Positions 1-13,224 of a stretch of 13,224 nucleotides of DNA are shown here, in pieces (the stretch's first letter is position 1; every line of letters starts with the position of its first letter). The DNA is taken from the IMG/VR virus record IMGVR_UViG_641522650_000012; one strand, written 5' to 3'. The notes below the pieces were generated by a model. The model was given only the letters and a program-made list of their open reading frames with translations, did not search any database and was not told where the DNA came from. The position numbers and the translations under genes were made by a program. This stretch comes from a virus. Its lineage: Duplodnaviria; Heunggongvirae; Uroviricota; Caudoviricetes.

Positions 1-258
1 ATGCAAACCGTTATTTTTGGTCGTTCGGCTTGCCCTTACTGTGTGCGTGCAAAAGATCTGGCTGAGAAATTGAGCAATGAACGCGATGATTTTCAGTATC
101 AGTATGTAGATATTCGTGCGGAAGGGATCACTAAAGAAGATCTACAACAAAAGGCAGGTAAACCCGTAGAAACCGTGCCGCAGATTTTTGTCGATCAGCA
201 ACATATCGGCGGCTATACCGATTTTGCTGCATGGGTGAAAGAAAATCTGGACGCCTGA
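1..258 (+). CDS. grxA: Glutaredoxin 1
   Basis: 85-aa ORF with the CPYC active-site motif (SACPYCVRAK); near-identical to my recollection of E. coli GrxA. Followed by a hairpin terminator. Confidence 0.95.
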   Translation: MQTVIFGRSACPYCVRAKDLAEKLSNERDDFQYQYVDIRAEGITKEDLQQKAGKPVETVPQIFVDQQHIGGYTDFAAWVKENLDA

Positions 259-267
259 TCGTCTGAC

Positions 268-300
268 AAGCCCTCGCGTTGAGGGCTTTACTGATTTTTT
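268..300 (+). terminator. Rho-independent terminator downstream of grxA (overlaps the 3' end of convergent ybjM)
   Basis: Inverted repeat agccctc/gagggct (269-275 / 281-287) with a 5-nt loop, followed by a T-rich run ending in tttttt (295-300). Confidence 0.5.
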
Positions 301-665
301 CTGTGCTGTGGTTTAAACAAACTACTGATAAATAAGAAACACAGTGCCCCCAGCGCACACCAGAACACCGCGCTTAGTAACCATGCCAGCTCTTGCCAGA
401 ATGAGCGCGTCGGTGAAAAAAACAGCCGCATAATGAGCATTGAACAGGGTGCCGCCAGCATTGCGCCAAATAGAGGTTTCAGGACTTCTCTACGCTGTGA
501 AAAGAAACTGGCAACTGCTCCAGGAAGAATGAAAAACAGCAAGCCGATTTCAGGATGCCCGGCAGCCCGAAAAGCGCCTTTCATGTGCGTCGCCAGAAAA
601 AGGCACACCACAATGAAGAGGACAAAACAGCAGATTGCCCCCGCCCAACGTTGTTTATGTTTCAC
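288..665 (-). CDS. ybjM: Small inner-membrane protein (YbjM-like)
   Basis: 125-aa ORF, strongly hydrophobic with several predicted TM segments; size and position between grxA and ybjL match the E. coli K-12 synteny as I remember it. Confidence 0.75.
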   Translation of the reverse strand: MKHKQRWAGAICCFVLFIVVCLFLATHMKGAFRAAGHPEIGLLFFILPGAVASFFSQRREVLKPLFGAMLAAPCSMLIMRLFFSPTRSFWQELAWLLSAVFWCALGALCFLFISSLFKPQHRKNQ

Positions 666-934
666 TCGTTCCTCCTGACACTGCGTCTATCGAACACATT
701 TTTCGCCAGTGTGGCGTTCAGTAAGATAAAGCCGCTTCGCATTCCATGCTAATATAGGCCAACGCAATTCATATAGCCGTTGATACCTAATGTGATTACA
801 CTAGTAAAATATATTGTTACTTTACTATCGTTTAGGTGCGCTGAATGAATCTGCGCCCTGAATTCTGGTAAAAAACATTATCGTAAATTACCATTTCTTT
901 CAACAGCTTACTAGTAAACAAGAAGTTAGCCTCC

Positions 935-2620
935 GTGAATATAAACGTCGCCGAATTGTTAAATGGGAATTACATTCTGTTATTATTTGTGGTCCTCGCG
1001 CTTGGGCTATGTCTCGGAAAGTTACGACTTGGTTCGATCCAACTGGGTAATTCCATTGGCGTTTTAGTCGTATCGCTGTTATTAGGCCAACAACATTTCA
1101 GCATTAACACCGATGCGCTTAATCTTGGCTTTATGCTGTTTATTTTCTGCGTCGGGGTCGAAGCCGGACCGAACTTTTTTTCCATTTTTTTTCGCGATGG
1201 GAAAAATTACCTAATGTTAGCACTGGTGATGGTTGGCAGTGCGCTGGTGATCGCCTTAGGGTTAGGTAAGCTGTTTGGCTGGGATATTGGCCTGACGGCC
1301 GGTATGTTAGCAGGCTCTATGACGTCGACACCGGTTCTGGTCGGTGCTGGCGATACACTGCGTCATTCCGGCATGGAAAGCAGGCAGCTCTCACTGGCAC
1401 TGGATAATCTGAGCCTCGGGTATGCCTTAACCTATTTAATCGGTCTGGTGAGTTTGATTGTTGGTGCGCGTTACTTGCCGAAATTGCAGCATCAGGACTT
1501 ACAGACCAGCGCCCAGCAAATCGCCCGCGAACGTGGCCTGGACACTGATGCCAACCGTAAGGTTTATTTACCGGTGATCCGCGCCTATCGCGTCGGCCCG
1601 GAGCTGGTGGCCTGGACCGACGGCAAAAATCTGCGTGAACTGGGTATTTATCGACAAACCGGCTGCTACATTGAACGTATTCGACGTAACGGGATTCTGG
1701 CAAATCCAGACGGTGATGCCGTGCTACAAATGGGCGATGAAATAGCGTTGGTAGGCTATCCCGACGCCCATGCCCGACTCGATCCCAGCTTCCGTAACGG
1801 TAAAGAAGTTTTCGATCGTGACCTTCTCGACATGCGTATCGTCACTGAAGAAGTGGTCGTTAAAAACCATAACGCTGTAGGTAAACGTCTCGCACAACTG
1901 AAGTTGACCGATCACGGTTGCTTCCTTAACCGCGTCATTCGTAGCCAGATTGAGATGCCGATAGATGACAACGTCGTGCTTAACAAAGGTGACGTTTTAC
2001 AAGTCAGCGGTGATGCCCGTCGCGTAAAAACCATCGCCGATCGCATCGGCTTTATCTCGATTCACAGCCAGGTCACTGACCTGCTGGCATTTTGCGCCTT
2101 CTTTGTTATTGGGCTGATGATCGGGATGATCACCTTCCAGTTCAGCACATTCAGTTTCGGCATGGGGAACGCTGCCGGGTTGTTATTCGCCGGAATTATG
2201 CTGGGCTTTATGCGTGCTAACCACCCGACCTTCGGTTACATTCCGCAAGGTGCATTAAGCATGGTGAAAGAGTTCGGCTTGATGGTGTTTATGGCAGGCG
2301 TTGGTCTGAGCGCCGGTAGCGGTATTAATAACGGCCTGGGCGCGATTGGCGGTCAGATGTTGATTGCCGGATTAATTGTCAGTCTTGTGCCCGTGGTTAT
2401 CTGTTTCTTGTTCGGTGCTTATGTATTGCGAATGAACCGCGCACTGTTGTTCGGCGCAATGATGGGCGCACGCACCTGCGCGCCGGCAATGGAGATCATC
2501 AGTGATACAGCTCGCAGTAACATCCCTGCGCTGGGCTATGCGGGCACCTACGCAATCGCCAACGTCCTGCTGACGCTGGCAGGGACAATCATCGTCATGG
2601 TATGGCCAGGATTAGGATAA
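935..2620 (+). CDS. ybjL: Putative AAE-family transporter YbjL with two central RCK_C/TrkA_C-like domains
   Basis: 561-aa ORF, N-terminus [13 protein letters not shown] matches my recollection of YbjL; hydrophobic N- and C-terminal halves around a soluble middle. Start codon is GTG at 935. Confidence 0.9.
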
Positions 2621-2732
2621 AACTGAAGTTGCCCTGAAAATGAAATTTTTTTGCACAACCGCAGAACTTTTCCGCAGGGCATCAGTCTTAATTAGTGCCA
2701 CTGCTTTTCTTTGATGTCCCCATTTTGTGGAG

Positions 2733-2778
2733 CCCATCAACCCCGCCATTTCGGTTCAAGGTTGATGGGTTTTTTGTT
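2733..2778 (+). terminator. Intrinsic terminator-like hairpin in the ybjL/ogr intergenic region
   Basis: Perfect 10-bp inverted repeat cccatcaacc (2733-2742) / ggttgatggg (2760-2769), followed by tttttt (2770-2775). T-run only on the + strand, so it would stop rightward transcripts. Confidence 0.45.
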
Positions 2779-2855
2779 GTCTGAAATTTATGCCTTTTAA
2801 AATCATGATGTTAGAAGCACTGTTTTTTAACGATGGCGACAAAATGGCGGCAGCG

Positions 2856-3107
2856 TCAAAGAGAGAGCGCCACCTGTCCTGATTTCATTGGATGCGGCTG
2901 AACCGGATTTGACTCTTTTGGCGTTGCAATCGAACGAACAAAAGTTTCATGGGTAACAAAAGTATGGCTGCAGTTAATGTTCTGGCACTGGTTGTAACGC
3001 TCTTTGGTCAATGAAGATACCTGAAAACTGCTGCGAGTATGGGCGGCACTTCCACACAGTGGGCAAATCATCATTTTTCGAGTTCTCCCCATTTTTGCTA
3101 AATTCAC
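2856..3107 (-). CDS. ogr: Ogr/Delta-family zinc-finger late-gene transcriptional activator
   Basis: From the internal Met (start at 3071) the protein reads MICPLCGSAAH...KERYNQCQNINCSHTF, the C-x2-C...C-x4-C pattern of P2 Ogr (~72 aa). The ORF-track start at 3107 is probably an upstream over-extension. Confidence 0.85.
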   Translation of the reverse strand: MNLAKMGRTRKMMICPLCGSAAHTRSSFQVSSLTKERYNQCQNINCSHTFVTHETFVRSIATPKESNPVQPHPMKSGQVALSL

Positions 3108-3164
3108 AATAATGATACCGCATTATTCCATTTTGCAAGCTTAAAAGTTCTCCATTGCGAAGAA

Positions 3165-4265
3165 TCATTCCATTTCGAAATCATCAATCCTCACTTCAAG
3201 CTCCAGACTGGTCGTAAAACCGTTATCCGGGCTGACAGTATGCGTCAGAGTCGTAATGGTCCATTCCGCATCATCTATCGGCTGTTTAAAGCCACTGACC
3301 TTCACAGGCATTTCTGTGTAGAGATCTGCCCGCCCTTCCGCCAGTTGTAGCGAGAATGATGCAACGCCGCGTTGCAGGCGTTCCCACTGCATTTTCGCTG
3401 CCCGTTCGGCGTTGCTCCGGTTGGCATAAGTGCGATTAAGTACCAGCACGTTTTCATCCGTACCCACCAGGTAATCGCCCTGCTTCGCTTCCGGCTCTTT
3501 CTTCTGCTTCTTAGTCCTGCGCTTACGCTTCACCGTGGTGCTTTCTTTCTTCGCGGGTTCGCGGGTATGCAACCAGCTGGCAATGACGCCCGTGTAAGCT
3601 CCGCGATCTGCCAGGGTAAAGCGGTGACTGTCGCCGTCCTTGCGTGTGATAGTGATCACCGGTAGTGGTTTACCGCTGGCGCTTTTACCCTGCCCCTGCC
3701 GGATGAATAACAGATTGCCATTTTTCACCGACGCAATAGCACCGTACTGGCGCGCCAGCCGCATCAAAAAACTGCCGTCACTCTCATTAGTCTGGTCTAT
3801 ATGCTCCACGAGTTTATCCGACAAGTCTTCACCCAATGCCATCTTCAGTTTGTGCCGCGCAGCTATTTCCTTCACCACTTCCCCAACGGTGGTCTTGTGC
3901 CACGACTTTTCACGGCGGGTATTCAGCGTTTCACGAAAATCAGCACTTCGCGCCCGGATAGTCAGGCGATCCGGTGCGCCAGTGTGTTCAATCTCGTCCA
4001 CCGTGAATGCCCCTTTCGGGAAAAGCGGCTGTCCCTTCCAGCCCAGCGCCAGCGTAATGACAGCCCCACGGCGCGGCAGCACGATTTTTCCATCGGCGTC
4101 GTCCAGCTCCAGATCAAGCTGGTCCGCTTCAAAGCCCCGGTTATCCGTCAGCGTCAGCCCCATCAGGCGGTTGTCCAGCACAGTGGTGATATCCCTGCCT
4201 TCAATACTGATGCTGAATGCCGGAGTTTTGTTGCCTTTGTTAAGCAGTTCAGAGCTGAAATTCAC
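3165..4265 (-). CDS. P2 gpD-like tail protein (late control gene D family)
   Basis: 366-aa ORF in the canonical P2 position between U and ogr; basic KRKRRTKKQKK linker region. Start inferred as GTG at 4265, overlapping the U stop codon (GTGA). Confidence 0.8.
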   Translation of the reverse strand: MNFSSELLNKGNKTPAFSISIEGRDITTVLDNRLMGLTLTDNRGFEADQLDLELDDADGKIVLPRRGAVITLALGWKGQPLFPKGAFTVDEIEHTGAPDRLTIRARSADFRETLNTRREKSWHKTTVGEVVKEIAARHKLKMALGEDLSDKLVEHIDQTNESDGSFLMRLARQYGAIASVKNGNLLFIRQGQGKSASGKPLPVITITRKDGDSHRFTLADRGAYTGVIASWLHTREPAKKESTTVKRKRRTKKQKKEPEAKQGDYLVGTDENVLVLNRTYANRSNAERAAKMQWERLQRGVASFSLQLAEGRADLYTEMPVKVSGFKQPIDDAEWTITTLTHTVSPDNGFTTSLELEVRIDDFEME

Positions 4266-4747
4266 GACAGCAGCCCTCCCACCGTTTTACTGATATCGCT
4301 TAAGGCAGATGTTGCCGTTCCCTGCAGATTATTCAGTTGCGCACTGAGATCACCGAACATATCGGACAGGGATTCATCCACGCGTTTTAGCGACAGGGTG
4401 AACTCAATCCGGCGCGGCATACCGTCGCGGAAAAACTCCGTTTTAGTCTGATTCAGTCCCTCAATCACATACATGCCGTAAATCGTGCCGCTGCCTTCAA
4501 TCAGGGGCCATGCTTTTCCCTGTTCTGCCATCTGCTCCAGAGCCAGCAACGACAGCCTGCCGCCCGTTACCTCCGGCATAAGAACACCAGAAAGCGTCAG
4601 CATGTCGTTGTCCGGTCCCAGAAACTGCGTTGACGGGCGTCGGTTTACCCGGCTGTTTGCCGCATGTCGCCAGCTGCGTTGATACTGCAGCTCCTGATAC
4701 GGCACGGTGCGCAGCATAAACACGTACAATCCCAGCACCATCATCAT
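4262..4747 (-). CDS. P2 gpU-like tail protein
   Basis: 161-aa ORF starting MMMVLGLYVFMLRTVPYQ, matching my recollection of gpU; ATGA overlap with the tape-measure stop codon (4744-4747). Confidence 0.85.
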   Translation of the reverse strand: MMMVLGLYVFMLRTVPYQELQYQRSWRHAANSRVNRRPSTQFLGPDNDMLTLSGVLMPEVTGGRLSLLALEQMAEQGKAWPLIEGSGTIYGMYVIEGLNQTKTEFFRDGMPRRIEFTLSLKRVDESLSDMFGDLSAQLNNLQGTATSALSDISKTVGGLLS

Positions 4748-7700
4748 GCGTCGTATCCCCCCTGATCGCTGTAGTTACTCCTGGCTTTTGCCTTCAGCCT
4801 GCGTTCACGTTCATCAAGCTGGCGGGCCACCTCCCGCGCAATATCCTGCGCACTTTGTCCTGGCTGCGTTTGAATGATGATCTGCATCGGTGCCTCAATC
4901 CGTTGAACGGGCGGCACAGTGGCTGCACGACTCACCATCGCTTCACCGCCTTTCGCGGGAAGTGCCAAAGGGTGCAACGGTGGAAGCTCTGCTGGCGTAG
5001 CAGCAACACCCATCATTCCGGCAACAACGGCAGCCAGTGCAGCTGTATTTCTCCGGCTGGTCACATTTGCCGGGCCGTTAACAATTTCCGGCCCGTTTTC
5101 ACCGACGATGCCAAACTGCCCGCGCGGGATATACCCGCCGCTGTCATACATCCCCGCAAAGCCATATCCCCATGACGGAAAACCACCCGATGGCATCATC
5201 ACTTTACCGTCTGCATTCACCGTCGCAGGTTGCTGACGCGTCACGCTTTCCGGCAGTTTCGCCTTTGCGGCCTCTTTACTGACAATGCCAAGTTTCTCCA
5301 GCAACCAGGAAACGCCGGATTTCAGGGAGTCCAGCGGATGCATGACCATATTCAGCCCTTCCGCCAGAGCCTCCCCGAATCGTCGCCCCATTGCCGCTGC
5401 ACTCTGCAGTTCGGCAGAGGTCGACTTAACGGGCGTCAGCAGATCAGTAAACCAGCCCCACAGCGCCTGTACTTTGTCGCCAATCCACTGGAACACAGGC
5501 TTAAGCGGTTCGAACGCGGCACTGACAGGACCTGCCGCCGCTTTGAATCCTTCCACCACGCCACCGAGAAATGCGGTGATGGGCTGCCAGTATTTCCAGA
5601 CAACCAGCGCCACACCCGCCAGTGCAGTAACCACAAGACCTATCAGACTGAGCAGAGCACCTAACAGACCAGAGACGGCATACAGGGCAACGCGCAGCAT
5701 CGCCAGTGGACCGGATGCGAGCATACGCAGCACCGTGCCTGTGGCAGCCAGTCCGCCGCGTAGTACCGCCAGTGGATTCATAAACATCACAGCAACCGCA
5801 CGTAAACCGGATAATCCAGACCGCAAAAGTGCAACCGGCGCACCTGCTACAGTTTTCAGGACATTTCCCGTCAGTGATGCCGTGCGGCGCAAAGACGACA
5901 ACGGCGCAGTAAGTAAACCTGCAGCGTTGCCCGATGAAGCAAGCCCGCGTCGCAGCAGTGCCAGTGGTGCGCCAGCCAGCCAGGACAACGCGTTGCTGGT
6001 TCGGGTTACTGCTGCCGTAACGGAAGGTAACGTTTTGATACCCAGCACAGAGAATCCCAGACGGATGACTGCCAGCGGCCCCAGCACTGCAGCCAGCGCC
6101 ACCGCTAAGGTGCCGAGGCCCACGGTAACGGCAGCTACCACAGCGGCTACTTTCATCAGAGTGCCCGTCAGTTCCGGGTTAGCTTCCACCCAGCGACGCA
6201 ACGCCCCCGTGACGCTTTTCACCGTGTACAGAATATCCATCAGCGGCTGGCGCAGCGTTTCCCCCAGGCTGCTGAAGGTGTTCTGTGCTCCGGTTTTGAC
6301 CAGCAACCACTGAGCAGAAAGTGAATCCTTGTTGATGTCGGATTCTTTCTGCATGGAACCGAGCGCATCATTGCCCGCAGTCAGTTTTAACTGGCGCTGA
6401 AGTTCCGGCAGGTTGTTTGCCAGTTTCGCTGCGTCATCGCCAAACTCTTTACCAAACAACATGGTCATGGCAGACAGGCGCTTATCCTGTGGCAGCGCAT
6501 TCACCTTCTCCAGCACCCGCTGGATAGTTCCCATCGCATCCTTCGTCATCTGCTTTTCAATCACTTCTGGATTGAGTTTCAGCAGATTCATCCCTTCAAA
6601 GAAACTCTTGCTTTGCATGGTGGCAATGGACAATTCACGCACCATCGCGTTTGCTGCACTGGCTGCAACCTCAGGCGCAGCGCCGAGTGTCAGGAAGGTG
6701 GAACCCAGCGCCGCCGCTTTACGATAATCCAGACGGTCAGCCACACCGCCCAGGCGTTGCATGACATCAATGATGTCCGCCCCTTTCGACATGGCGTTAT
6801 CATCCAGATAGTTCAGCGCATCACCGAGCTGCTCAATATTGCGGGTAGGGATTTTGTAGAGCTGGGCGATTTTCCCCAGACTTTCTGACAGTTCATCCGC
6901 TGGCAGTTCAAAGGCTGTTGCCGCCTTTGCCGCCGTGCTGGCGAAGGCCAGCAGGTCACGTTTCTGGTCTTCCCAGCTGTCGTCAGGGTTTGCGACGTTC
7001 ATGCGCGCACCACCTTCAACCAGTGCGGCGAAGTCCACAGCACCGTTTTCCATCGGCAACTGTTCGCTGGCAGCCTTGATGGCACCCTGCATTTCGTAAA
7101 AACGCGCAGTGCGGTTGCCATTATCGTCACGCAGACCATTGACCTGCTTTGCCACACCTTTCATGGCATCTTCCATGCTGGTATAGCTTTTTACTGCCGC
7201 CATCACTGGTGCGCCCATTGCCAGCCCTGCAGCCGTGGTGGTGGCTCCGGCACCTGCAATACGATCCCTTACCTCAAGACGCCTGGCGTAAGCCCCCCGG
7301 GCGGCGTGCATTTTTCGCTGTTGCTCCCCGACACGTCGTAACCTCGCTTCCTGCTCAGAAAGCTGCCTGTTATAACGCATCGTTTCACGGGTAATGCGGG
7401 CCGTCGCACTGGCGCCATCATTAGCTGAAATACCAGCACGATAAAGTTCTGCACGCACAAGCGCCGTCTGCTGCTGCAGCTTTTTCTGGCGTTCTTCCAG
7501 GCGCTGAACAGCCAGCCGTTGACGGCCCAGAGCAACAACCTGACGTTGCGAAGGCGGCCCCATCGCTCCCAGTTCCTGACTGAGCAAATTTGCACGCTGG
7601 CGGGCATAGTTCAGCCTGTCGCCTAATTTCTGATTTTCTGCCTGCAGCTTTCGGAAGCTGTCCAGACTGCTCCCGGCCTGATCAAGCTGCTTTATTGCAT

Positions 7701-7821
7701 CGCGGGATTTTTTGACAGCAGCAGCCAGTTCTCTTGAACTGGCCTGCGCGGATCGAAATGGGCGGGTGAGTTTGTCAACCGCATTAAGAATCACCTGCAG
7801 ACGCAGGTTATTGTCACTCAT
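4744..7821 (-). CDS. Tail tape measure protein (P2 gpT family)
   Basis: 1025-aa ORF, coiled-coil-like N-terminal third, central hydrophobic/Gly-Ala-rich repeat tract, position between E/E' and U. Its start overlaps the E' stop codon. Confidence 0.9.
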   Translation of the reverse strand: MSDNNLRLQVILNAVDKLTRPFRSAQASSRELAAAVKKSRDAIKQLDQAGSSLDSFRKLQAENQKLGDRLNYARQRANLLSQELGAMGPPSQRQVVALGRQRLAVQRLEERQKKLQQQTALVRAELYRAGISANDGASATARITRETMRYNRQLSEQEARLRRVGEQQRKMHAARGAYARRLEVRDRIAGAGATTTAAGLAMGAPVMAAVKSYTSMEDAMKGVAKQVNGLRDDNGNRTARFYEMQGAIKAASEQLPMENGAVDFAALVEGGARMNVANPDDSWEDQKRDLLAFASTAAKAATAFELPADELSESLGKIAQLYKIPTRNIEQLGDALNYLDDNAMSKGADIIDVMQRLGGVADRLDYRKAAALGSTFLTLGAAPEVAASAANAMVRELSIATMQSKSFFEGMNLLKLNPEVIEKQMTKDAMGTIQRVLEKVNALPQDKRLSAMTMLFGKEFGDDAAKLANNLPELQRQLKLTAGNDALGSMQKESDINKDSLSAQWLLVKTGAQNTFSSLGETLRQPLMDILYTVKSVTGALRRWVEANPELTGTLMKVAAVVAAVTVGLGTLAVALAAVLGPLAVIRLGFSVLGIKTLPSVTAAVTRTSNALSWLAGAPLALLRRGLASSGNAAGLLTAPLSSLRRTASLTGNVLKTVAGAPVALLRSGLSGLRAVAVMFMNPLAVLRGGLAATGTVLRMLASGPLAMLRVALYAVSGLLGALLSLIGLVVTALAGVALVVWKYWQPITAFLGGVVEGFKAAAGPVSAAFEPLKPVFQWIGDKVQALWGWFTDLLTPVKSTSAELQSAAAMGRRFGEALAEGLNMVMHPLDSLKSGVSWLLEKLGIVSKEAAKAKLPESVTRQQPATVNADGKVMMPSGGFPSWGYGFAGMYDSGGYIPRGQFGIVGENGPEIVNGPANVTSRRNTAALAAVVAGMMGVAATPAELPPLHPLALPAKGGEAMVSRAATVPPVQRIEAPMQIIIQTQPGQSAQDIAREVARQLDERERRLKAKARSNYSDQGGYDA
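5686..5967 (-). repeat. Five imperfect ~63-bp (21-aa) in-frame tandem repeats inside the tape measure gene
   Basis: Protein motif P-L-A-x-L-R-x-G-L recurs at about aa 619, 640, 661, 682 and 705 of the tape measure protein. Confidence 0.6.
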
Positions 7822-8250
7822 GGCTGGCCCCGCTTCTCTGAATCGCTTTATCCCGCCATTCCAGCACTTCGGTCAGCGGCATAACGTCAGTAACGGATGG
7901 CGGCCAGTGAAAGATGGTGGCGATATCAGCCACCAGATCGTCAACCGTCAGGCTGTCGGTAAACCGGCAAGCACCGACTTCTTCAACAAAAAAGTGACAA
8001 CCTCAACCGACATGGCAGTGAGATCTGCCGGGTCCATCTCTGCAATTTCCTGTGCAGTCAGTGCCGGACTGGAGATGCGGGGGATCACGGTCATCATCGC
8101 GTTCACATCCATATCCATAATGGCCTGCAGGCGTGTGCCGCGCAGCGCACCGGACTGCGGTTTACGCAACACAATTTCGGTAATTTCTGTTTTACCGCGC
8201 ATGATGGGAGTATCCAGTTGAATGGTCTTTTCAGTCTGCTTATCGCTCAT
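7814..8250 (-). CDS. gpE+E' tail assembly chaperone made by programmed -1 ribosomal frameshift
   Basis: After a -1 slip at T-TTT-TTG the reading frame stays open for 58 codons to a TGA at 7816-7814, overlapping the T start codon (ATGAGTGA). Predicted fusion is about 146 aa, as for P2 E+E' and analogous to lambda G/GT. Confidence 0.6.
7948..8250 (-). CDS. P2 gpE-like tail assembly chaperone (zero-frame product)
   Basis: 100-aa ORF between FII and T with an SD-like AGGA upstream; contains the TTTTTTG slippery heptamer near its 3' end. Confidence 0.8.
   Translation of the reverse strand: MSDKQTEKTIQLDTPIMRGKTEITEIVLRKPQSGALRGTRLQAIMDMDVNAMMTVIPRISSPALTAQEIAEMDPADLTAMSVEVVTFLLKKSVLAGLPTA
7987..7993 (-). 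promoter_or_regulatory. Slippery heptamer T-TTT-TTG for the E/E' -1 frameshift
   Basis: The + strand reads caaaaaa at 7987-7993; on the coding strand this is the TTT-TTG codon pair of gpE preceded by T. Confidence 0.6.
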
Positions 8251-8304
8251 TTTGTTGTCCTGTAAATTAGGTTCTGGCGCGGCATTCCGCGCCGTTCAGA
8301 TACA

Positions 8305-8820
8305 TCAGAGGCCGAGGGCGTTGCGGTGCGCTTCCATCAGGTCCACACCGTCCACAATTTCCACCATGTTGATCAGGTCCACTTCATAGAGCACCTCACC
8401 ATTGATGGTCAGCTTCGCGTAGCTGTTGGTACTGGTCACTTTGGTAGTGTTGCTTTCGCCCGTCTTCCACTCGCCGGAATCTACTTCTTTGTGACGTCCA
8501 CGCACCACAAGCTCCACGGCCTGCACTTCCCCGGTATCATCACGCTGAATAGAGCCGGTAAAGCGCAGCTGGATGCCATCCACCGTGGCTTTGCCCATCT
8601 GCTTAAACAGCAGCAGTTCAGTACCACCAATGGAAAATTCTGTATCCAGTGCACTGTCATCCAGTCCCAGATCCACATCCACCGCTCCGGGCATACCGCC
8701 GCCGCGATACTTCTCATATTTGCGGGTGAATTTCGGCAGCGTCAGCGACTCAACGATCCCCTGCCAGTTGTTCCCGTCGTTAAACAGGTTCAGGTGTTTT
8801 AATTTGCGTGGTAAAGCCAT
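8305..8820 (-). CDS. Tail tube protein (P2 gpFII family)
   Basis: 171-aa ORF immediately downstream of the sheath gene; size and position match P2 FII. Confidence 0.85.
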   Translation of the reverse strand: MALPRKLKHLNLFNDGNNWQGIVESLTLPKFTRKYEKYRGGGMPGAVDVDLGLDDSALDTEFSIGGTELLLFKQMGKATVDGIQLRFTGSIQRDDTGEVQAVELVVRGRHKEVDSGEWKTGESNTTKVTSTNSYAKLTINGEVLYEVDLINMVEIVDGVDLMEAHRNALGL

Positions 8821-8829
8821 GTTGTCCCC

Positions 8830-10002
8830 TTACGCGCTGACCTGGCTGGAGAAATTCACCAGGTACTGATCGGTGATGCGCTGACGCAGCATCAGGTTTT
8901 CAAGTGGCGGCACTGGCGTGTAGTCGTAATCGATGGTGAGTTTCCCGGCTTTCAGCGTGTCTTTATCGTTCACCGACTCGTCCAGCCAGCAATCACCACC
9001 AATGAGATAGCCCTGACTGACCAGGCTACGCATTTTGGCGCGGATACCTTCGATAATGTCGCGGGCCAGCGACGGGTTCAGCGGTTTGTCCACCGCCCAC
9101 ATGTGCGCTTCTGCCATCGTGTCCATCAGCACCTGCGCCGTGCGGGTGTAGTTTTCGAAGGCAAAGAGCGGATCATCGCTCAGACAGCGGGAACCCCAGA
9201 AGCGGAAACCGTCTTTGCGGATAAGCGTGGTGATATCGTTCTGGTTAAGCAGACCTGCATCGGTTGCCGGGTCCTGCAGATCCCAGAACACATCAGCAGA
9301 AATTCCGGTGACACCGTTCACGCCCACGTTGGACAGGCTTTTGTGCCATCCGGTCTGCTCATCAATTTTAGCGCGCAGACCGAGCGCACGGGCGGTGGCA
9401 TAAGCCGTTGCTTCGGCATTCAGCACCGTGTCCCAGCCAGTAAAGTCGGGCCAGATCAGCATTCCTTCACGCTGACTGAAGTTTTCACGGTAAGTGATTG
9501 CTTCCTGCACCGTCTTGCAACCATACGCTGACAGGTAAGCAAATCCACGCAGGCTTTGCGCCACGCTCAGCAACTCAGTAGCTACCGCCTTCGTGTCGTG
9601 ACCTGGCACGCCGAGAATGCGCGGTTTAACGCCGAGCTGTGACTGGGCAGATAACAGGGCTTTCATACCTGTTTTTTTACCCTCGGCGGTCACTGCGCCA
9701 ATGATATTGGTTGTGGTTTCTTCTTCCGTTTCACCCTGCGGCACACGCACAACAACGGTCACGGGTTTTGCCTGGTCAGCGATGGCATCCAGCGAACGGG
9801 CCAGCGTGCCAGACTCACCCGCTTTACCGCTGGCGGTCAGCACATCAGTGATCAGCACAGGTTTATTAAGAGGAAACATTTTTGCATCGGCATCATCGCC
9901 CGTGCAGACCATACCCACGATGGCGGTGCTCACCGTGGTAATGGATCGGGTGCCTTCGTTGACTTCAACAACGCGCACCCCGTGGTGGTAATCCTGAGCC
10001 AT
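8830..10002 (-). CDS. Contractile tail sheath protein (P2 gpFI family)
   Basis: 390-aa ORF starting [14 protein letters not shown] with an AGGAGG SD 9 nt upstream; first gene of the FI-FII-E-T-U-D cluster. Confidence 0.9.
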
Positions 10003-10064
10003 AGTGGCGAACCTCCTGATTGGATTAGGCTTCGCCCTATGTTGAAGTGGGTAATGACTCCAAC

Positions 10065-10442
10065 TTATTGATAGTGTTTTATGTTCAGATAATGCCCGAT
10101 GACTTTGTCATGCAGCTCCACCGATTTTGAGAACGACAGCGACTTCCGTCCCAGCCGTGCCAGGTGCTGCCTCAGATTCAGGTTATGCCGCTCAATTCGC
10201 TGCGTATATCGCTTGCTGATTACGTGCAGCTTTCCCTTCAGGCGGGATTCATACAGTGGCCAGCCATCCGTCATCCATATCACCACGTCAAAGGGTGACA
10301 GCAAGCTCATAAGACGCCCCTGCGTCGCCATAGTGCGTTCACCGAATACGTGCGCAACAACCGTCTTCCGGAGCCTGTCATACGCGTAAAACAGCCAGCG
10401 CTGGCGCGATTTAGCCCCGACGTATCCCCACTGTTCGTCCAT
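10065..10442 (-). CDS. insB: IS1 InsB reading frame (expressed as InsAB' transposase by -1 frameshift)
   Basis: ORF-track fragment [22 protein letters not shown]... is the canonical InsB frame. The slippery motif AAAAAAC lies at 10505-10511 (+ strand gtttttt), so the real frame extends upstream of this Met. Confidence 0.85.
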
Positions 10443-10486
10443 TTCCGCGCAGACGATGACGTCACTGCCCGGCTGTATGCGCGAGG

Positions 10487-10762
10487 TTACCGACTGCGGC
10501 CTGAGTTTTTTAAGTGACGTAAAATCGTGTTGAGGCTAACGCCCATAATGCGTGCAGTTGCCCGGCATCCAACGCCATTCATGGCCATATCAATAATTTT
10601 CTGGTGCGTACCGGGTTGAGAAGCGGTGTAAGTGAACTGCAGTTGCCATGTTTTACGGCAGTGAGAGCAGAGATAGCGCTGATGTCCGGCAGTGCTTTTG
10701 CCGTTACGCACCACCCCGTCAGTAGCTGAACAGGAGGGACAGCTGATAGAAACAGAAGCCAC
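10487..10762 (-). CDS. insA: IS1 InsA (transposition inhibitor / N-terminal part of InsAB')
   Basis: 91-aa [27 protein letters not shown]..., the canonical IS1 InsA with its zinc-finger. Confidence 0.9.
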
Positions 10763-11110
10763 TGGAGCACCTCAAAAACACCATCATACACTAAATCAGT
10801 AAGTTGGCAGCATCACCGCTCTTTGTTATTAAGCCCACTAACTACCTATGCTAAAAATTATCCTTGTTCTGGGAAAAAGGGAGGTGTCTCTCACTGTACC
10901 TCCGATGGAAAATTTGTTTGCAATGATGGAACTATTAGTAAATTCAAAAAAATCTGTACTAAAAACTCACGATAACTTTTGCTTTTATATCTGCGTCTAA
11001 AATAAAAATGAGCCGCAGGTTAACCGCAAAAGTTACATGCTCACATAGCAAAAAGAATAGCCAACTTCATTATGGCTTCAGTGAGATGTATGGTCGTAGG
11101 ATTTCATACA

Positions 11111-11139
11111 TTGACACTGGTTATACATACAGTGAAAAT
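11111..11139 (+). promoter_or_regulatory. Candidate sigma70 promoter upstream of the integrase, now separated from it by IS4
   Basis: Perfect -35 TTGACA at 11111-11116, 17-bp spacer, -10-like GAAAAT at 11134-11139; predicted start site about 11146, just before the IS4 insertion point. Confidence 0.3.
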
Positions 11140-11142
11140 ACT

Positions 11143-11153
11143 CTCTACTGGAG
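11143..11153. repeat. IS4 target-site duplication, left copy (CTCTACTGGAG)
   Basis: 11-bp sequence immediately flanking the IS4 end, identical to 12580-12590. Confidence 0.9.
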
Positions 11154-12579
11154 TAATGCCAGTCAGTTAAGCAACTGACTGGCTCTTTTTCGGGGCTGTG
11201 GGGTATTTCCAGGGCCTCTCCTTTACCACTCTCGGGAAGGCCCTTCCCCTTCTCGTCGGTAATTTCACAAGTTGTCCCATACTTGCAAGATCGCGCATCA
11301 GCTCCGGTATACGTCCCGGTGAAGCGCCCTGCAATGTCATCAGCATTCTCATCACCATTCCGCATGATTCTGAGAAACTCAGTTGATTCGGCCAGTAACC
11401 TTTCAGATGTTCCGCCATTTTAATCATCTGATATCTCACCAGATTATAAGCCAGTAAGACACCCCACAGCTCTTGCTCCACAAGCTCCGGCTTTTTACTT
11501 CTCAGCGTCAGCCTGCTCAGTTGCATCGTCTGTTTTATCTCCCTGTATCCCAGTTCGATTTCCCAGCGATGACTGTACAGATCCGCCATTTCTCCTCCGG
11601 GGAAGCGCATGGCGTCCGTCATCGACGTCAGCAGATGGCAGACTTTTCCTTTGCGCGTCACGGTCAGCAGGCGGGCTGTCACTTCATTTCCCAGTCCCGG
11701 CCACTTTTTTCGTGCCTGCGGGCTGGTTTTCAGCTTCACCAGATGATCGCCTTTACCCAGTTTTCTGAGCTCTTCATATTGCGCTCCCTTTCTGAGAGGT
11801 ATCATCCAGTGGCGGTGTTCTCCCGCCAGGCTCCAGGCATTTAACAGTCCCAGTGAGTAATAACCTTTATCCATTAACGTCAGAGTGTTATCGCCGGTTT
11901 GTTCTATAAGTTGCTCAGCAAGCTCATTTTCGCTGTTCTTCATCGTGCCGAAGGCTGCAGCCGTCAGCAGATGGCTGGTCAGTTCCATCTGGCAGACCAT
12001 TTTGACCTGCGGGTAGAGCGCCGGGTTCCCGGCATGTGTCTGGCGGGGGAAGGCTGCATCGTTCTCTGGTGTATCCGGTGTGCGCCAGAACACACCATCG
12101 ATGGCCAGCAGGGTCAGGCCGCACCAGTGCGGATGCGGCGTGGCGTTATGCCAGAGCTGCGCTGTTTTCGTGAACACGCGGCGGACAGCCTCACTTCCCA
12201 GGCGCTGGCGGGCCTGAATAACGGCACTGGGGGCAACGAAGGGGCGATTGCCCGGCAGCATGATGTCCAGGCGATTCACAATCTGGTGAAGAGGTTCTTT
12301 ACGCTCAAGCGCCATGCCAACAATACACCAGACCATCATTTCGAGGGGAAGACGGCGCTTGCGTAGCGTTACAGTACCTGATTCGGCAAGGCAACGAGAG
12401 ATGAGTTCGGGGTCGAGGTAATCCCCCAGAGAAGTCAGTGGGTTACGCAGAGAATCGTAACGGGATACCAGATCAAGAGCCTGTCCAATGTGCATAAAAA
12501 AATCCGGAAACAAGTGAGCGTTTCCGGATTCTTACACAGCCACTGGATCGGTCAACTGATCCTTAACTGATCGGCATTA
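11154..12579 (-). mobile_element. IS4 insertion sequence, complete 1426 bp
   Basis: Ends taatgccagtcagttaag... (11154-) and ...cttaactgatcggcatta (-12579); single transposase ORF; exactly the 1426 bp I remember for IS4; perfect 11-bp direct repeats flank it. Confidence 0.95.
11167..12513 (-). CDS. insG: IS4 transposase (DDE family)
   Basis: ORF-track protein matches my recollection of E. coli IS4 transposase from [16 protein letters not shown]...; the likely true start is that Met (12495), giving 442 aa; the track's 448 aa includes a 6-aa upstream extension. Confidence 0.9.
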
Positions 12580-12590
12580 CTCTACTGGAG
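12580..12590. repeat. IS4 target-site duplication, right copy (CTCTACTGGAG)
   Basis: Identical to 11143-11153; contains the GGAG of the integrase Shine-Dalgarno sequence. Confidence 0.9.
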
Positions 12591-12600
12591 GGCATTTTTT

Positions 12601-13224
12601 ATGGCAGTACGAAAACTCACCACTGGGAAATGGCTTTGCGAATGTTACCCCGCCGGACGAAGTGGGCGTCGTGTGCGTAAACAATTCGCCACCAAAGGCG
12701 AAGCACTGGCTTTTGAGCGCCACACGATGGAAGAAACCGAAGCAAAGCCCTGGCTGGGTGAATCAGTGAATCGTCGAACACTGAAAGACGTGGTTGAGCT
12801 ATGGTTCAAACTACATGGTAAATCTCTGACAGCTGGGCAGCATGTCTATGACAAATTGCTGTTGATGGTTGACGCTCTGGGCAATCCTCTTGCAACCGAT
12901 CTCACCTCTAAAATGTTTGCCCACTATCGAGATAAACACCTGACAGGCGAGATCTACTTCAGCGAGAAATGGAAGAAAGGAGCAAGCCCGGTCACCATTA
13001 ACCTGGAGCAAAGCTATCTAAGTAGTGTTTTTAGCGAACTATCCCGTCTGGGCGAATGGTCGTATCCGAACCCACTGGAGAACATGCGAAAATTCACCAT
13101 CGCAGAAAAAGAGATGGCATGGCTTACCCATGAGCAGATTGTTGAATTGCTGGCTGATTGCAAACGTCAGGACCCAATTCTGGCACTGGTAGTTAAGATA
13201 TGCTTAAGCACAGGCGCACGCTAG
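12601..13224 (+). CDS. int: Tyrosine integrase of the P2/186 family (3'-truncated by the window end)
   Basis: N-terminus MAVRKLTTGKWLCECYPAGRSGRRVRKQFATKGEALAFE and the segment WLTHEQIVELLADC...VVKICLSTGAR resemble my recollection of P2 and 186 Int; GGAGG SD 9 nt upstream of the ATG. The catalytic C-terminal domain lies outside the window. Confidence 0.85.
   Translation: MAVRKLTTGKWLCECYPAGRSGRRVRKQFATKGEALAFERHTMEETEAKPWLGESVNRRTLKDVVELWFKLHGKSLTAGQHVYDKLLLMVDALGNPLATDLTSKMFAHYRDKHLTGEIYFSEKWKKGASPVTINLEQSYLSSVFSELSRLGEWSYPNPLENMRKFTIAEKEMAWLTHEQIVELLADCKRQDPILALVVKICLSTGAR

Follow-up and report, generated by a model that had tools for sequence, protein, structure and literature searches.

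P2-like prophages integrated at the small-RNA gene rybB have been described in E. coli W, B, and Crooks (Rybb*W, Rybb*B, and Rybb*Cr; Archer et al. 2011, PMC3032704, Table 2), making rybB a published integration site for this type of phage. In the lysogenic operon of coliphage 186 and P2, the repressor gene (cI or C) is followed by int in the direction of attP, and cI likewise lies upstream of int in the intact relatives of the prophage described here; the rybB-integrating group differs from 186 and P2 in that a variable spacer or cargo separates cI from int, and in that its Int is 39% identical to P2 Int. Another P2-family prophage located at a small-RNA gene, cyaR, has been reduced in K-12 to its ogr-proximal end, the ogr–D′ fragment (PMC3032704, Table 2). 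Two complete phages, Escherichia phage vB_EcoM-813R9 (ON470620) and Klebsiella phage 4LV2017 (Elveevirus, Peduoviridae), encode integrases that are 100% and 99.4% identical, respectively, to the intact form (350 aa) of the integrase discussed below, and in both the int leader is conserved from an inverted repeat or the −35 element onward, as is the case here; these phages differ from the present locus in having a full-length int and other genes between cI and int.

The window, i.e., the whole stretch of 13,224 nt that was analysed, almost certainly contains both ends of one P2/186-like (Peduoviridae) prophage located at rybB in Shigella boydii CDC 3083-94 or in an identical genome, and altered by three lesions. 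Positions 4823–13224 are 100.000% identical to the S. boydii CDC 3083-94 chromosome (CP001063.1). Attachment site, gene order, and orientation are shared with the rybB-integrated prophages Rybb*W, Rybb*B, and Rybb*Cr, and the late genes are 96.7% identical to those of the intact E. coli 1EC213 prophage, the cI–int spacer and int 99–99.7%; by comparison with intact rybB prophages, the copy in the window lacks approximately 26 kb of internal genes, including cI, and has gained an IS1, an IS4, and a premature stop in int. Unlike the K-12 ogr–D′ fragment, this remnant has kept both prophage ends and both att cores, and its deletion is internal and marked by IS1. The features are as follows.

935–2620, plus strand: ybjL.
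2700–2778, plus strand: complete rybB small-RNA gene (Rfam RF00110), in the order of the empty site of K-12; its 3′ terminator bears the phage attachment core.
2765–2791, no strand assigned: left copy of the att core, ATGGGTTTTTTGTTGTCTGAAATTTAT (direct reading and BLAST).
2856–10049, minus strand: surviving late-gene block, comprising ogr, D, U, T, E/E+E′, FII, and FI, plus 47 bp upstream of FI.
Within 2856–10049, minus strand: tape measure gene T, 1025 aa (ORF).
8830–10002, minus strand: tail-sheath gene FI (Pfam).
10050–10817, minus strand: IS1, 768 bp, encoding InsA and InsB on this strand (Pfam).
10818–10975, plus strand: 3′ remnant of a YdcA-family gene (translation of the intact 1EC213 gene; NCBIfam, PHROGs, and PF27300).
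10976–11153, plus strand: native spacer in front of int, which it directly adjoins in E. coli prophages that lack IS4.
11143–11153, no strand assigned: left copy of the IS4 target-site duplication, CTCTACTGGAG (read directly).
11154–12579, minus strand: IS4, 1426 bp, a simple insertion (Pfam; transposase at 11167–12513).
12580–12590, no strand assigned: right copy of the IS4 target-site duplication, CTCTACTGGAG (read directly).
12601–13224, plus strand: int pseudogene, codons 1–207 plus the premature TAG at 13222–13224 (ORF, Pfam, and comparison with relatives).

The late-gene block was assigned from ORFs, the Pfam domains of the sheath protein, the 96.7% alignment to E. coli 1EC213, and Pfam marks in S. 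boydii relatives. The initial annotation of this DNA had placed IS1, an AT-rich segment, IS4, and an int start at 12601 in this order, and ORFs, Pfam, and GC content bear out these placements. Its observation that int begins only 2.6 kb from the tail-sheath gene (8830–10002 to 12601), with no repressor gene between the two, also holds, as neither the ORF list nor Pfam revealed a repressor-like ORF between the sheath gene and int. The immunity region as a whole (cI/C with apl/cox and cII) is absent from the window and falls within the block of the 1EC213 prophage that has been deleted here.

The rybB gene matches RF00110 over model positions 1–79 of 79 with 105.3 bits (gathering score, 40), and RybB was the only Rfam family detected at the gathering threshold in the whole window, with none in 10818–13224. 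In K-12, the unoccupied site has the order rcdA–rybB–ybjL, with a single copy of the core at the 3′ end of rybB; in the window, the first 14 nt of the left core are the final 14 nt of rybB, and homology to K-12 stops at position 2791. The right copy of the core, ATGGGTTTTTTGTTATCTAAAATTTAT, follows int just past the end of the window, where it was read in an S. boydii sibling and in CP001063.1. The 27-bp core can be written as ATGGGTTTTTTGTT(G/A)TCT(G/A)AAATTTAT, with one copy at the rybB terminator and another immediately downstream of int. The right core is directly followed by rcdA, so that host DNA, and no cargo, lies beyond int. A single pair of core repeats therefore bounds an element whose unoccupied site is known in K-12, no second att pair is present, and the prophage is integrated at the 3′ end of rybB, between ybjL and rcdA.

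As reference for the intact state we used the prophage of E. coli 1EC213 (NZ_CP061101.1, 3104136–3138799). BLAST against this locus returned three blocks, representing the late genes (window 1–10049 to locus 1282–11330, 96.7%), the spacer (10818–11153 to 37402–37737, 99.1%), and int (12580–13222 to 37727–38369, 99.7%), with order and orientation kept on either side of the gap. The annotated order in 1EC213 begins with ybjL, ogr, D, U, T, E, E′, FII, FI, an invertase gene, tail fibres, and baseplate; continues with lysis, head, terminase, portal, cargo, replication A, dam, and more genes through fil, cII, and apl; and ends with CI, a 63-aa ORF, int, and rcdA. In the intact relatives, cI is located upstream of int on the same strand, apl and cII are divergent, and no further gene separates int from the att site. 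Intact P2/186-like prophages with which the window is collinear occupy the interval between rybB/ybjL and rcdA in approximately 1100 E. coli genomes. Among 5426 complete E. coli genomes, 1120 contain the int segment and 695 the 336-bp segment (10818–11153); in the E. coli genomes inspected, the two matches abut directly, without an IS4.

These alignments bear on two readings put forward in the initial annotation, i.e., a single P2-like prophage that lost a very large internal part together with its immunity region, or a second integrative element or satellite starting at position 10818, with its own promoter and a P2-family int, that was joined through IS1 to an unrelated tail remnant. A second element would be consistent with the perfect −35 hexamer and plausible −10 element just upstream of int, with a leader that travels with int across differing upstream contexts, and with an IS1 that lacks a target-site duplication and could in principle join unrelated DNA. 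However, the sequences to the left and to the right of IS1 come from one and the same prophage type at one att site, only one att pair is present (cores at rybB, left of ogr, and just after int), rcdA rather than cargo follows int, and the 336-bp segment is 99.1% identical to the cI–int spacer of intact prophages. Collinearity with the intact prophages thus refutes the second element, which we consider very improbable, while the same collinearity, together with the att core and rcdA after int, upholds the reading of a single prophage with a large internal deletion. An att core and host DNA after int, and a homologous phage whose C–int junction matches 10818–11153, were what the initial annotation had said would reduce the locus to a trivial deletion derivative, and both were found. 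The apparently atypical context stems from decay involving IS1 and IS4 and does not reflect a different regulatory design.

The IS1 copy is complete (768 bp; Pfam Zn_ribbon_InsA, HTH_Tnp_IS1, and DDE_Tnp_IS1). A simple insertion of IS1 is expected to produce a target duplication of 8–9 bp; the flanks observed here, GTTGAAGTG and GCTCTTTGT, differ from each other, showing no target-site duplication, and are located 26 kb apart in the 1EC213 locus, indicating a deletion or recombination junction and not a simple insertion. IS1 takes the place of 1EC213 locus positions 11331–37401 (26,071 bp), a block that includes the whole immunity region. By the 1EC213 gene content, the genes lost are the invertase, fibre, baseplate, lysis, head, terminase, cargo, and replication genes, cII, apl, cI, and the first 34 nt of the YdcA-like gene; both the size of the deletion and this gene list come from an E. 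coli relative that is 96.7–99% identical, and the cargo of the lineage's own ancestor may differ. IS copies without duplications have been presented, as a general point, as marks of IS-associated deletions (PMC11708052). We infer that the block was lost either by an adjacent deletion mediated by IS1 or by recombination between two IS1 copies, two routes that are indistinguishable here. Neither IS1 junction was found in the 5426 complete E. coli genomes, which also contained no intermediate.

The position of the deletion also bears on the suggestion that 10818–11153 is left over from accessory cargo of the Z/fun type, carried at a variable locus upstream of FI. In P2, this locus natively lies between the tail-fibre genes and FI. 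The segment is now located approximately 0.8 kb upstream of FI, is AT-rich, and holds part of a small accessory gene, as such a remnant might; in the intact prophage, however, it is found about 26 kb from FI, between cI and int (1EC213 locus 37402–37737), at the opposite end of the deleted block, and it is an invertase gene that occupies the position upstream of FI. The present adjacency is a product of the deletion, and an origin as Z/fun-type cargo is refuted.

The 336-bp segment has a GC content of 36.0%, as compared to approximately 53–58% in the adjoining phage genes. The initial annotation had described it as an AT-rich leader full of stop codons; the AT-rich character was confirmed, but only part of the segment is non-coding, as 10818–10975 represents the 3′ 158 nt of a 63-aa YdcA-family gene that was cut by IS1. 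This gene lost 34 nt at its 5′ end, and with them its start codon and the first part of the signal peptide. Its intact counterpart (1EC213 locus 37368–37559, translated) encodes a 63-aa member of a small secreted-protein family, which matches NCBIfam NF007463 with 115 bits (cut-off, 93) and phrog_6000, and the remaining 50-aa ORF carries a PF27300 mark. No Pfam match was obtained for the three small ORFs within 10818–11178, the Pfam copy used being one without PF27300. The other 178 nt of the segment are untranslated spacer and int leader. Judged by its alignment, the AT-rich 336-bp segment is the normal cI–int spacer of this phage type.

The spacer includes a 7-bp inverted repeat (ATGTATG at 11086–11092 and CATACAT at 11105–11111) and a σ70-like match, TTGACA-17-GAAAAT, at 11111–11139. 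A promoter-like element had been proposed here, and the match itself is present; it could not be set apart from chance, as a scan of 2 kb yielded three such matches, as compared to 1.8 ± 1.1 in shuffled sequences, and the match at 11111–11139 is not significant on its own. The region upstream of int suggests a conserved int-proximal module next to a position of cargo exchange between cI and int. One could further speculate, although we think it rather unlikely, that the module of approximately 65 nt (repeat, TTGACA, −10-like element, and leader) acts both as an autonomous int cassette that permits rybB-integrating P2-like phages to swap cargo between cI and int, and as a preferred IS4 target, where an insertion would cut int off from transcription upstream and thereby fix prophages in place.

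Four cargo contexts were observed upstream of int, consisting of the YdcA-like gene, a set of three genes including an ASCH-domain gene, a gene encoding a 558-aa ATPase, and a 349-aa ORF. Three of these contexts were aligned (all but that of the 558-aa ATPase), and in each of the three homology resumes at the ATGTATG…CATACAT repeat, which abuts the −35 hexamer.

The N-terminus of the int product matches Int_N (PF24624, E = 7e-31), and the label of P2-family integrase given in the initial annotation is correct: besides its 39% identity to P2 Int and its identities of 100% to the integrase of vB_EcoM-813R9 and 99.4% to those of Klebsiella Peduoviridae, the intact Int is approximately 55% identical to the integrases of P2-like phages of Yersinia and Salmonella. 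That annotation had taken the ORF as an integrase, overlooking the stop codon with which it ends. Codon 208 is TAG (13222–13224), while all intact relatives have TGG at this position (W208*), and the stop directly follows the first catalytic Arg (…STGAR*). In the source genome, the frame is open beyond the stop, encoding HVLRH and MRYAH before the normal int stop. The codons for the catalytic K, HVLRH, GHH, and RY all lie beyond the TAG, and an uninterrupted ORF for a functional tyrosine recombinase was not encountered; int is therefore a pseudogene through a single nonsense mutation. A truncated Int that lacks the Lys, His-x-x-Arg, His, and Tyr would, from the chemistry of tyrosine recombinases, be unable to recombine. 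The exact 207-aa product corresponds to WP_000290945.1 from S. boydii and is present on eight contigs; a near-identical 207-aa variant is present on 155 contigs from S. boydii and S. dysenteriae. In the presence of an amber suppressor, the full-length protein would again be made.

At least six independent assemblies, four of them complete chromosomes, share this IS1 junction, and the 50-aa YdcA ORF truncated by IS1 occurs in 137 indexed blocks of the collection. Misassembly is common at IS elements and the TAG codon represents the final three bases of the window, which could point to an assembly or sequencing artefact as the source of the arrangement or of the stop; yet this recurrence of the junction and of the truncated ORF, the presence of the exact and near-identical 207-aa products on multiple contigs, and the clean target-site duplication of IS4 leave an artefact with hardly any likelihood. 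Because the ORF cut at the IS1 junction and the 207-aa Int variant are spread over the 137 blocks and 155 contigs, respectively, both lesions are old in the lineage. Both are also present, without IS4, in S. boydii sequences GCF_002950275.1, CP049281, and CP026762 and in AMKE and AMJS contigs (S. boydii), the first of these being the genome of an S. boydii ATCC strain (PMC12679885).

The apparent integrase without a repressor is thus the outcome of three separate lesions: an IS1-associated deletion that starts 47 bp upstream of FI and reaches 34 nt into the YdcA-like gene, with loss of cI; a TGG-to-TAG change at codon 208 that truncates Int; and a later transposition of IS4 into the int leader, producing an 11-bp duplication, in the CDC 3083-94 sublineage only. 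The remnant is, as far as can be predicted from its gene content, immobile and non-inducible prophage debris. This is ordinary, well-understood IS-driven prophage decay in Shigella, seen in a published genome at a published integration site. Its value is mainly for annotation, in that int is best marked as a pseudogene, the tail genes and int belong together as one remnant, and the 50-aa “YdcA” ORF represents a truncated gene; the int leader as a recurrent target of IS4, and the cI–int spacer as a variable cargo position, may be of interest to phage and IS specialists.

The IS4 element (1426 bp; RefSeq label IS4) has the ends TAATGCC…GGCATTA and the Pfam domains Nterm_IS4 and DDE_Tnp_1. Target duplications of IS4 are normally 11–13 bp in length, and the copy in the window is flanked by the 11-bp direct repeat CTCTACTGGAG, the right copy of which ends 10 bp upstream of the int ATG; the same sequence is present as a single copy in the IS4-free loci of E. 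coli 1EC213 and two S. boydii siblings. While the IS1 deletion is common to the siblings, IS4 is absent from the six sibling S. boydii loci examined, and was otherwise found in two short-read assemblies, with contigs that start 27 bp inside IS4; its restriction to CDC 3083-94 and these two assemblies indicates a later, simple transposition. A candidate target consensus for IS4 is AAA-N20-TTT, for which we found no support in the literature searched. The IS4-free site fits this consensus (AAA-ATACTCTCTACTGGAGGGCA-TTT); the motif is nevertheless too unspecific to serve as more than a lead, with nine matches in the window, as compared to 4.8 expected. In E. coli EC0880B, a prophage that is otherwise intact has an IS4 inserted at this very position, with the same orientation. 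This IS4 copy is flanked by a 12-bp duplication, CTCCACTGGAGG, in which the local C allele is duplicated, and the IS itself differs at six positions; the length of the duplication, the allele, and the six differences indicate an independent IS4 hit on the same target.

An IS4 element sits in the leader of the prophage integrase gene in the window, and the intact prophage of E. coli EC0880B carries an IS4 at the identical spot and in the identical orientation. The features concerned are as follows.

Window, 11143-11153 and 12580-12590: IS4 target-site duplication (11 bp, CTCTACTGGAG)
EC0880B, 12040-13480: IS4 in the int leader (duplication of 12 bp, CTCCACTGGAGG)

Because the duplications differ in length (11 vs. 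12 bp) and the two IS4 copies differ at 6 positions, they represent two independent insertions, which points to a hot spot for IS4 in the int leader, 10 bp upstream of int.

In this leader (window 11086-11139), a 7-bp inverted repeat, ATGTATG-N12-CATACAT, adjoins a perfect -35 hexamer, TTGACA. When the window, EC0880B, the intact reference prophage of E. coli 1EC213, and the relative L018 were aligned, the repeat and the -35 were found to be kept upstream of int where more distal DNA is unrelated, and the homology shared by the cargo variants restarts precisely at the inverted repeat. This element could be an operator, hairpin, or promoter module for int. The DNA between cI and int differs from relative to relative among P2-like phages integrating at rybB:

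EC0880B, 9778-11982: three genes, one encoding an ASCH-domain protein
1EC213, 37368-37559: 63-aa YdcA-like secreted protein
L009 (a further relative), 3242-4918: 558-aa "chromosome segregation ATPase"
L018, 1851-2900: 349-aa hypothetical protein

The cI-int interval looks like a variable cargo position in these phages, one that apparently coincides with neither of the classical cargo sites, old/tin and Z/fun. A further interval, between the portal gene and dinI, often holds defence cargo in P2-like phages; in 1EC213 it contains the following genes, which fall within the block deleted from the window.

1EC213, 26362-30324: three genes for hypothetical proteins, together with one DUF4145 gene

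The surviving late-gene block (window 2856-10002), which extends from ogr to the sheath gene, consists of intact ORFs, including an unbroken tape-measure ORF of 1025 aa; the partners of these genes (baseplate, fibres, and head) are missing from the window. In two sibling S. boydii assemblies (L003 and L004) the tape-measure gene is split, possibly as a result of assembly errors. The rybB gene is complete in the window, with the phage att core rebuilding its terminator (gene and core together span 2700-2791); the phage-side copy of this core shows three differences from the K-12 sequence, all downstream of the 3′ end of the RybB RNA. Among the neighbouring host genes downstream of the window, mdfA appears degraded in the S. 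boydii relatives (L003-L007), being split or shortened (e.g., 304 + 70 aa or 341 aa), and ybjJ appears degraded in some of them (375 aa vs. 402 aa), in keeping with a general decay of Shigella genes in this neighbourhood.
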